From Escherichia coli (GTDB lineage Bacteria > Pseudomonadota > Gammaproteobacteria > Enterobacterales > Enterobacteriaceae), in assembly GCF_003334765.1 (NCBI RefSeq), contig NZ_QOWT01000030.1: a DNA stretch of 49,226 nucleotides, one strand, 5' to 3'. Shown here in pieces: positions 48,001-49,226 of the stretch. Position numbers: made by a program. The first letter of the stretch is position 1; the number at the start of each line of letters is the position of its first letter.

Positions 48001-49226
48001 TGTATGATGAGAAAGGAGAATACCTGAAAGCCTGGACGGTGGTGGATGCAGGTCTGTCGTGGAAGATGACGGATGCCCTGACGCTGAATGCTGCGGTGAA
48101 TAACCTGCTCAACAAGGATTACAGTGACGTGAGCCTGTACAGTGCCGGTAAGAGTACGCTGTATGCCGGTGATTACTTCCAGACGGGATCATCAACAACA
48201 GGATATGTGATACCTGAGCGAAATTACTGGATGTCGCTGAACTATCAGTTCTGATAATAACAAAACGCTATCACTGACGGTAGAATACGTTGCCACTGCA
48301 ACTCCTGGCGGAACAGTGGCAACGTATTAGGTTAAGTGCATTTCCGATCCGCTAATGAGATTTCGTTACCAACAACTAATATCGTCACAGGAAATGCACG
48401 GATTATTTTTAACTTATCATTTACATACTTGTCCAGAGTGTAAGCGCACCGTGAAGGACGTGGGGTAAAAATTAGTTTACAGAGAGAGTGACGTTCCAGG
48501 GCAACAACTCTTTCATGCGGTTGGCAGGCCAGGTGTTGATTACACTGATCACGTGGCGTAGCCACGTTTCCGGCTCGATTCCGTTAAGTTTTGCAGCTAC
48601 CGATCAGGCTGTACATCACTGCCGCACTATCGCTCGTCATCTCAAAGTCCGGTCTCGTCAGCAGGAAGGTATCATTCTCTCCCGCCATTTTTCCAGGGGC
48701 CCGGTCAGATAAGTCCCTTTGTCTATCGCTGACTCCTGACTCATAACCCGGTTAGCAGAATGCAGGGTCACCACCTCGCCACGACCGAATCCGAATAAGT
48801 CAATTGCACCTTCTCAATCGCCATTTTGTCACAATTAAGTTTGATAAAGCAGGTCACCTCTGCACTGAATCTGCTCCAGTGCCTCATTGGTTTCCGTCCC
48901 CCCCTTTAAACTGCCGGATAAGACTGCTGCACAGCGCCTTCCCCGGAATCAAATCACTTTCCCTGTCCGCCACAATCCGCTTCATGCCACCTCGTATTTT
49001 GTTTCAGAGACCGAAATCTGCCAGAAAGTGACTACGCGTGCACATATCGGTTTTCTGGGTTACATGCATCGTGTTATTTTCTGAAATGCAAAATAATAAA
49101 AAACAAGGACACATAATGAAGGATGAAATACACAGTACCAGCATCAACCGTAAGCGTACAGCGAGGGCCGTATTGACGGGGATGTGTTATTCAGCTGGCA
49201 GTGCTATGCGCCACGGAAGCAGTTCG

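Follow-up and report, generated by a model that had tools for sequence, protein, structure and literature searches.

The features by which IS66-family elements are generally recognized, familiar from ISfinder and from Han et al. 2001, are three ORFs, GTAAGCG-type repeats, and an 8-bp duplication. We confirmed these features directly on intact copies: in the O121:H19 strain FWSEC0006 (L003), an element of 2,709 bp with imperfect inverted repeats starting GTAAGCG, tnpA, tnpB, and a 518-aa tnpC is bounded by a perfect 8-bp duplication, TCGCCATT, and when it is excised along with one of the two duplicates, its insertion target, a 2,442-bp ISEc8, is restored. None of the annotated plasmid records examined gives this 2.7-kb element a name; it is possibly IS679, which Han et al. 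reportedly described in 2001 as 2,704 bp long.

A second arrangement relevant to the locus is found on STEC IncF plasmids. On pSTEC2018_166-a (L007:2528-4934), an intact DUF2235 gene (563 aa) is followed by a DUF2931 gene, and the pair lies between ISEc8 and a stub of the 2.7-kb IS66 element, upstream of a YadA-like adhesin gene. As DUF2235 is the alpha/beta-hydrolase domain found in T6SS phospholipase effectors of the Tle1 type, the plasmid pair might be an orphan effector/immunity pair.

The window analyzed here, a stretch of 49,226 nucleotides of Escherichia coli DNA (contig NZ_QOWT01000030.1), ends shortly after the gene iha. Its final 972 bases match with 100% identity the chromosomes of E. 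coli O55:H7 USDA5905, strain H3, O111:H21 15A, and HSP425, and positions 15682-49226 are collinear with USDA5905 at 99.76% identity. In USDA5905 the corresponding DNA sits in an island linked to tRNA-Ser that carries cah, iucABCD-iutA, and iha; espI lies just past the edge of the window. Collinearity does not hold for the whole window: positions 1-15681 are not collinear with USDA5905, and the left part of the island therefore differs between the source strain and USDA5905.

The last ~790 bases, 3' of iha, hold two IS66-family stubs, a decayed gene fragment, and a small gene cut after 11 codons, so that the 3' flank of iha reads as a five-piece mosaic. Our interpretation, to which we assign a probability of about 90%, is that 48255-49226 is an inert mosaic lying at the boundary of a module in a pathogenicity island that carries iha, with no likely working gene or mobile element. 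The features on which this interpretation is built are the following:

46164-48254, plus strand: iha, bifunctional siderophore receptor/adhesin, 696 aa (ORF; PGAP name in identical or 99% identical genomes).
48284-48328, no strand assigned: hairpin 30 nt past the iha stop codon, its stem a perfect 15 bp, AATACGTTGCCACTG / CAGTGGCAACGTATT (BLAST self-inverted match).
48440-48633, minus strand: right-end stub, 194 bp, of the 2,709-bp IS66-family element (96.9% identity to L003:3500-3693).
From 48440, minus strand: terminal inverted repeat of this stub, GTAAGCGCACCGTGAAGGACGTGGGG (coincides with the terminus of the intact copy).
48622-48633, no strand assigned: 12-bp microhomology where the IS stub meets the DUF2235 fragment, a putative deletion junction (overlapping alignments and base-by-base inspection).
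48622/48623-48973, minus strand: decayed fragment of a DUF2235-domain gene (blastn and tblastn to WP_000229015.1).
48958-49115, plus strand: IncI1-plasmid-like intergenic segment upstream of a small gene (89.6% identity to L004:2501-2693).
49105-49109, plus strand: Shine-Dalgarno sequence AAGGA, within the IncI1-like segment.
49116-49149, plus strand: first 11 codons, MKDEIHSTSIN, of a widespread gene for an 80-aa hypothetical protein (ATCC 25922 alignment; tblastn).
49150-49226, minus strand: right end of ISEc8 (IS66 family), running off the window (94.8% identity over 77 bp to L003:1302-1378).
From 49150, minus strand: ISEc8 terminal inverted repeat, GTAAGCGTACAGCGAGGGCCGTATTGACGGGG (aligns to the right terminus of a PGAP-named ISEc8).
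49187-49189, minus strand: stop of the ISEc8 tnpC (a PGAP pseudogene begins at 49187).
49190-49225, minus strand: last 12 TnpC codons, ELLPWRIALPAE (tblastn, 12/12 residues identical to ISEc8).

The preliminary description of this DNA had suspected a recombination seam of the island at the right edge, and at least four seams do lie within 750 bp, at 48439/48440, 48622-48633, about 48958-48973, and 49149/49150, with another at 48831 in O157. The heptamer GTAAGCG occurs five times in the window against ~6 expected (calculated by us for any 7-mer, counting both strands of 49 kb), which is chance level; the calls of IS termini therefore depend on the length of the alignments, which start exactly where intact elements end (194 bp at 96.9% and 492 bp at 98.98%). 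RefSeq already carries both minus-strand transposase pseudogenes in a genome identical over 48255-49226: PGAP annotates 48472-48622 as a 'transposase domain-containing protein', frameshifted and with the N-terminus missing, and the feature starting at 49187 as an 'IS66 family transposase', also with the N-terminus missing.

Several further observations concern the rest of the island, which is studded with IS66-family ends. At 42966 (plus strand), GTAAGCGTCCAGCGAAATCCATCTGGTCATAATCTG resembles the ISEc8 left repeat, a terminus of IS66-family type, and at 13163, where a reverse-complement match ends, GTAAGCGTCAACGGAGCACCGTATTGACGCTTATTTATT equals the ISEc43 right repeat at 39/40 positions. The fifth GTAAGCG copy, ending at 16136, is inside iutA and is probably there by chance. 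RefSeq genomes also carry a 60-aa 'hypothetical protein', WP_000922604.1, at 46043-46225 on the minus strand, antisense over the iha start codon and promoter region; this is probably a spurious call.

At the right edge, the proposed start of a plus-strand ORF holds: an ATG occupies 49116-49118 behind the AAGGA, the translation begins MKDEIHSTSINRKRTARAVL..., and the frame, MKDEIHSTSINRKRTARAVLTGMCYSAGSAMRHGSSS, stays open to the window end at 49226. That it represents a new gene running off the edge does not hold. A three-way alignment shows the window and USDA5905 leaving ATCC 25922 exactly at 49149/49150, after codon 11, whereas ATCC 25922 and many ExPEC genomes, 99.1% identical over 48255-49149, continue into an intact 80-aa CDS, WP_001363144.1. 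The ISEc8 end, a second IS66-family terminus that had been overlooked, begins 34 nt into the ORF, from which point the 3' end of tnpC is read antisense; identity to ISEc8 starts at the very terminus, the reference being a PGAP-named copy of 2,442 bp after removal of its nested IS. In USDA5905, identical over 48255-49226, the ORF from 49116 stops after 54 codons, at the window-equivalent position 49280. The ORF is thus a chimera of 11 genuine codons and antisense ISEc8 read-through. We assume that it is not expressed; its ribosome-binding site and upstream region are intact.

What lies past the edge is visible in relatives. USDA5905 (L001:8896-13871) has a 492-bp ISEc8 right-end stub on the minus strand, 83 bp, and then the left end of an ISEc43 with tnpA, tnpB, and a tnpC interrupted by ISEc45 (IS110 family); next comes a further ISEc8 right-end stub, this one oppositely oriented, then 16 bp of an ISEc43 repeat, a piece of IS3, and espI. 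The 492 bp (L001:8896-9387) are 98.98% identical to the PGAP-named ISEc8, after which homology ends. An intact IS66 element, the outcome that the preliminary description had said would overturn it, is not what these relatives carry: they show IS66-family stubs and a nested, interrupted ISEc43. Among 5,426 complete E. coli genomes, the junction query 49100-49226 is covered to at least 80% in nine, and at least 80% of 48255-49226 is present in 725; by these counts, the ISEc8 junction is a rare, derived state.

It is very unlikely, on this evidence, that a complete and potentially active ISEc8 recently entered the 80-aa gene; had it done so, the gene would resume 2.4 kb away, after an 8-bp duplication with the sequence CATCAACC. 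The precise ISEc8 terminus abutting the gene at 49150 and the multicopy nature of ISEc8 in E. coli genomes speak for such an insertion. However, all nine complete genomes with the junction carry the pseudogene that PGAP labels 'incomplete; missing N-terminus', the element in USDA5905 is a stub, the following 8 kb there contain nothing more of the 80-aa gene, and the terminal 77 bp (94.8%) are more diverged than expected of a recent copy. The window itself stops at 49226 and covers 77 nt of the element, and truncation beyond that point is deduced from the nine junction-sharing genomes. The preferred reading of a truncated ISEc8 in a broken gene is also consistent with the window, and 17 kb of USDA5905, lacking the remainder of the 80-aa gene.

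To the left of the junction, 48958-49149 is 89.6% identical to the IncI1 plasmid p15648-2, and a looser alignment extends back to 48933. The plasmid carries the same 80-aa gene, 330 bp from a divergent Hok/Gef gene. A hok/sok or other RNA element suggested by this context was rejected, as Rfam returned nothing and the IncI1 match starts beyond the Hok gene. In IncI1 plasmids and in the ATCC 25922 island the 80-aa gene travels with two small hypothetical genes (~122 and 71 aa); the 71-aa companion is the same protein, WP_000266543.1, in the IncI1 plasmid (L004:2660-3780) and in ATCC 25922 (L002:6862-8251), and in the plasmid this conserved small-gene cassette adjoins the Hok/Gef toxin gene.

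The 80-aa family (WP_001363144.1 / WP_000650923.1) comprises 89 clusters in a large protein collection, the most distant at ~60-70% identity. With few exceptions the members are exactly 80 aa long, every source labels them 'hypothetical', and Pfam, NCBIfam, and PHROGs gave no match. The family alignment has three invariant cysteines and two conserved blocks, HCxSSEEALxMLSxLC and GISMQLQGID, with indels confined to the C-terminal end of two members; the invariant cysteines, conserved blocks, and scarcity of indels therefore suggest a genuine small protein. Between ATCC 25922 and the IncI1 plasmid the gene differs by two synonymous and two non-synonymous changes, too few for an informative dN/dS. 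The window retains codons 1-11 only, and with them neither block.

The hairpin at 48284-48328 is kept in all iha contexts examined, and the ViennaRNA minimum-free-energy structure of 48255-48345 (91 nt) has a predicted energy of -30.1 kcal/mol. It may serve as an iha terminator or mRNA-stability element; the terminator scan passed over it because it is without a T-run. It is the sole candidate functional element, and it lies outside the region of the stubs and the ORF proper. Promoter- and terminator-like sites were not above the shuffled expectation, and Rfam at E <= 1 gave nothing besides a spurious snoRNA match.

These results bear on a very unlikely alternative, in which the block 48255-48831 travels with iha in O157, UPEC, and plasmid settings because it works as an iha 3'-UTR, sRNA, or regulatory element. 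The block is at least 99% conserved beside iha in hundreds of genomes and in different islands, and the strong hairpin after iha would fit such a role; the empty Rfam search and the background level of promoter and terminator signals argue against it, its content is recognizably pseudogenic, and high identity is expected anyway from recent horizontal spread of the module. We regard as similarly improbable the proposal that 48958-49115, whose promoter-proximal region and Shine-Dalgarno are intact, still drives the chimeric peptide of 54 aa, or else a transcript antisense to tnpC of ISEc8 at its 3' end, with some effect on ISEc8 copies elsewhere. More broadly, this reading takes the 80-aa family for a real small protein that contains cysteines, is so far wholly uncharacterised, and occurs on IncI1 plasmids and in pathogenicity islands.

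The preliminary description was right that an IS66-family remnant ends at about 48475: on the minus strand the C-terminus of TnpC, AAKLNGIEPETWLRHVISVINTWPANRMKELLPWNVTLSVN*, runs to a last sense codon at 48475-48477 and a stop (TAA) at 48472-48474, at the end of the first PGAP pseudogene. Its parent is the intact FWSEC0006 copy, to which a sensitive BLAST match is restricted to window 48439/48440-48633 and begins exactly at the element's terminus (L003:3501), and it is by this position at the end of an intact family member that the GTAAGCG-type terminal repeat of the stub is recognized. Only one end of the element survives in the window; the perfect 8-bp duplication, TCGCCATT, flanks the intact parent copy. 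Codons 467-518 of the 518 in TnpC remain, as residues 467-480 and 478-518 in two frames (tblastn E 7e-24 and 3e-5); the frameshift is a single extra T in the T-run at 48589-48592, missing from two independent copies. The stub is therefore no complete TnpC ORF, with 52/518 codons and a 1-nt insertion, and its partial NF033517 match scores 26 bits against a cut-off of 180. Past 48633 there is no homology to the intact element, so tnpA, tnpB, and the DDE core are absent, and a six-frame Pfam scan of 48634-49149 was empty, giving no further IS66 domains. Each of the two stubs has one terminal repeat and no transposase, and therefore neither can transpose; both are remnants that fall short of completeness, not function-capable members of their families.

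The transposase had been called split over three frames; TnpC homology is limited to two, and the frames further upstream come from a DUF2235-domain gene. When plasmids were searched sensitively at the DNA level, 48635-48957 matched, in two pieces at ~78% identity, a gene annotated 'DUF2235 domain-containing protein', and blastn of the fragment gave 77-81% identity to L007:2950-3259 and 3503-3566 of pSTEC2018_166-a. A tblastn search with WP_000229015.1 (563 aa) recovered codons about 141-164, 167-236, and 318-346 (E 7.5e-14 and 8e-6), with in-frame stops, frameshifts, and an ~80-codon deletion (codons about 237-317); weak similarity may reach codon 115, at window ~49048. The peptides ...GEVVTLHSANRVMSQESAIDKGTYLTG... 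and ...AGENDTFLLTRPDFEMTSDSA..., which resembled more split transposase, are therefore DUF2235 debris. The motif FGFSRG reads FGFGRG in the window, so that both the intact frame and the motif serine are lost, and the fragment cannot encode a protein. The identification is one of pairwise homology to a PGAP-named protein, as the Pfam DUF2235 profile found no match in six frames even at E <= 10. On the plus strand, 48789-48920 weakly resembles the zinc-finger region of IS66 TnpC (E 0.09-0.65); this was put down to chance, because minus-strand DUF2235 homology explains the same bases.

It is thus barely credible that a single IS66 C-terminal remnant extends in three frames from 48475 to ~48900 next to a genuine new gene from 49116 past the window: protein-like ORF pieces on the minus strand (48475-48985) and the good Shine-Dalgarno and ATG invite this reading, but TnpC homology stops at 48633, the upstream pieces match the DUF2235 protein (E 7.5e-14) and not IS66, and the ORF shares 11 codons with the 80-aa gene before running into the ISEc8 terminus and, in the relative, a stop at codon 54.

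That the IS stub adjoins the DUF2235 fragment is seen directly in the alignments, whereas the mechanism and size of the deletion are what we infer from them. The two parent alignments overlap by 12 bp, the IS reaching 48633 and the DUF2235 gene starting from 48622. In gene direction, the bases are GCGATAGTGCGG in the window, GCGAGAGTGCGG in tnpC, and GCGACAGCGCGG in the plasmid DUF2235 gene; the microhomology is imperfect (10/12 and 11/12) and could be partly coincidental. On pSTEC2018_166-a, the same IS is left as a 504-bp stub (IS coordinates 2206-2709) that lies ~2.3 kb downstream of the matching DUF2235 position in the same orientation, so that this E. coli plasmid keeps the undeleted order DUF2235 - DUF2931 - 504-bp stub.

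Taken in order, the pieces tell the following history. A 2.7-kb IS66-family element once followed iha in the opposite orientation, and its terminal repeat remains at 48440. A microhomology-mediated deletion of ~2.3 kb would then have joined codon 467 of tnpC to codon 346 of a DUF2235 gene that lay upstream in the same orientation; as the plasmid DUF2235 gene, only ~78% identical, is a cousin and not the direct ancestor, this size is approximate. The deletion would have left the 194-bp stub joined to the DUF2235 gene, which decayed further through stops, frameshifts, and an internal deletion. To its right lies the IncI1-plasmid-like segment, with the promoter-proximal region and start of the 80-aa gene. 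In the small lineage of 9/5,426 complete genomes, the right end of ISEc8 is joined after codon 11. The loss of the rest of the 80-aa gene and the reduction of ISEc8 to a 492-bp stub next to ISEc43 with ISEc45 are shown in relatives and presumed for the window.

The region records how the iha module is stitched into varied settings (O157 ter islands, UPEC islands, plasmids, and this aerobactin-iha-espI island), with its joins marked by IS66-family elements and putative microhomology deletions. In annotation, no gene should be called at 49116, and the so far unannotated stretch 48623-48973 is a DUF2235 pseudogene. The current understanding of IS66 elements and of iha is unchanged: all objects here are of known kinds, ordinary genomic scar tissue that matters little. 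The function of the 80-aa family would be worth finding.

The 2,705-2,709-bp IS66-family element, common on EHEC and Shigella plasmids, shares with the first stub its right end, terminal GTAAGCG, and TnpC C-terminus, whereas the stub keeps 194/2,709 bp, with one frameshift and without tnpA, tnpB, the DDE core, or the second repeat. The gene for WP_000229015.1 on pSTEC2018_166-a aligns to the window fragment over codons 141-346 at ~78% nucleotide identity and has the same IS stub downstream; unlike it, the window copy is fragmentary, with stops, frameshifts, and an ~80-codon deletion, and lacks the DUF2931 partner. Positions 49150-49226 align to the right terminus of ISEc8 (2,442 bp) with the last 12 TnpC residues identical, but show 4 mismatches in 77 bp and cut a small gene, and in relatives the element is truncated and lies near ISEc43::ISEc45.

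At the level of whole islands, the O157:H7 tellurite-resistance/adherence (ter) island shares iha and 48255-48831 at 99.5% identity and then breaks at 48831 into a truncated terF, whereas strain NCCP 13983 has its breakpoint at ~48871. In O157:H7 Z887 (L005:3329-3715, with window 48771-48831 as counterpart), a 128-aa 'TerD family protein' annotated beside iha is itself a chimera of ~108 residues of truncated terF and a last 20 (DKMAIEKVQLTYLDLVVARW) read through from the DUF2235 pseudogene. The 'TerD family' homology at 48771-48830 was accordingly set aside as not ter-derived, the O157 ORF running from truncated terF into shared sequence. The UPEC islands of the ATCC 25922 type, also found in many ExPEC strains, share iha and the flank up to 49149 at 99.1% identity; there ATCC 25922 continues into the intact 80-aa gene and further small genes, whereas the window switches to ISEc8 at 49150.
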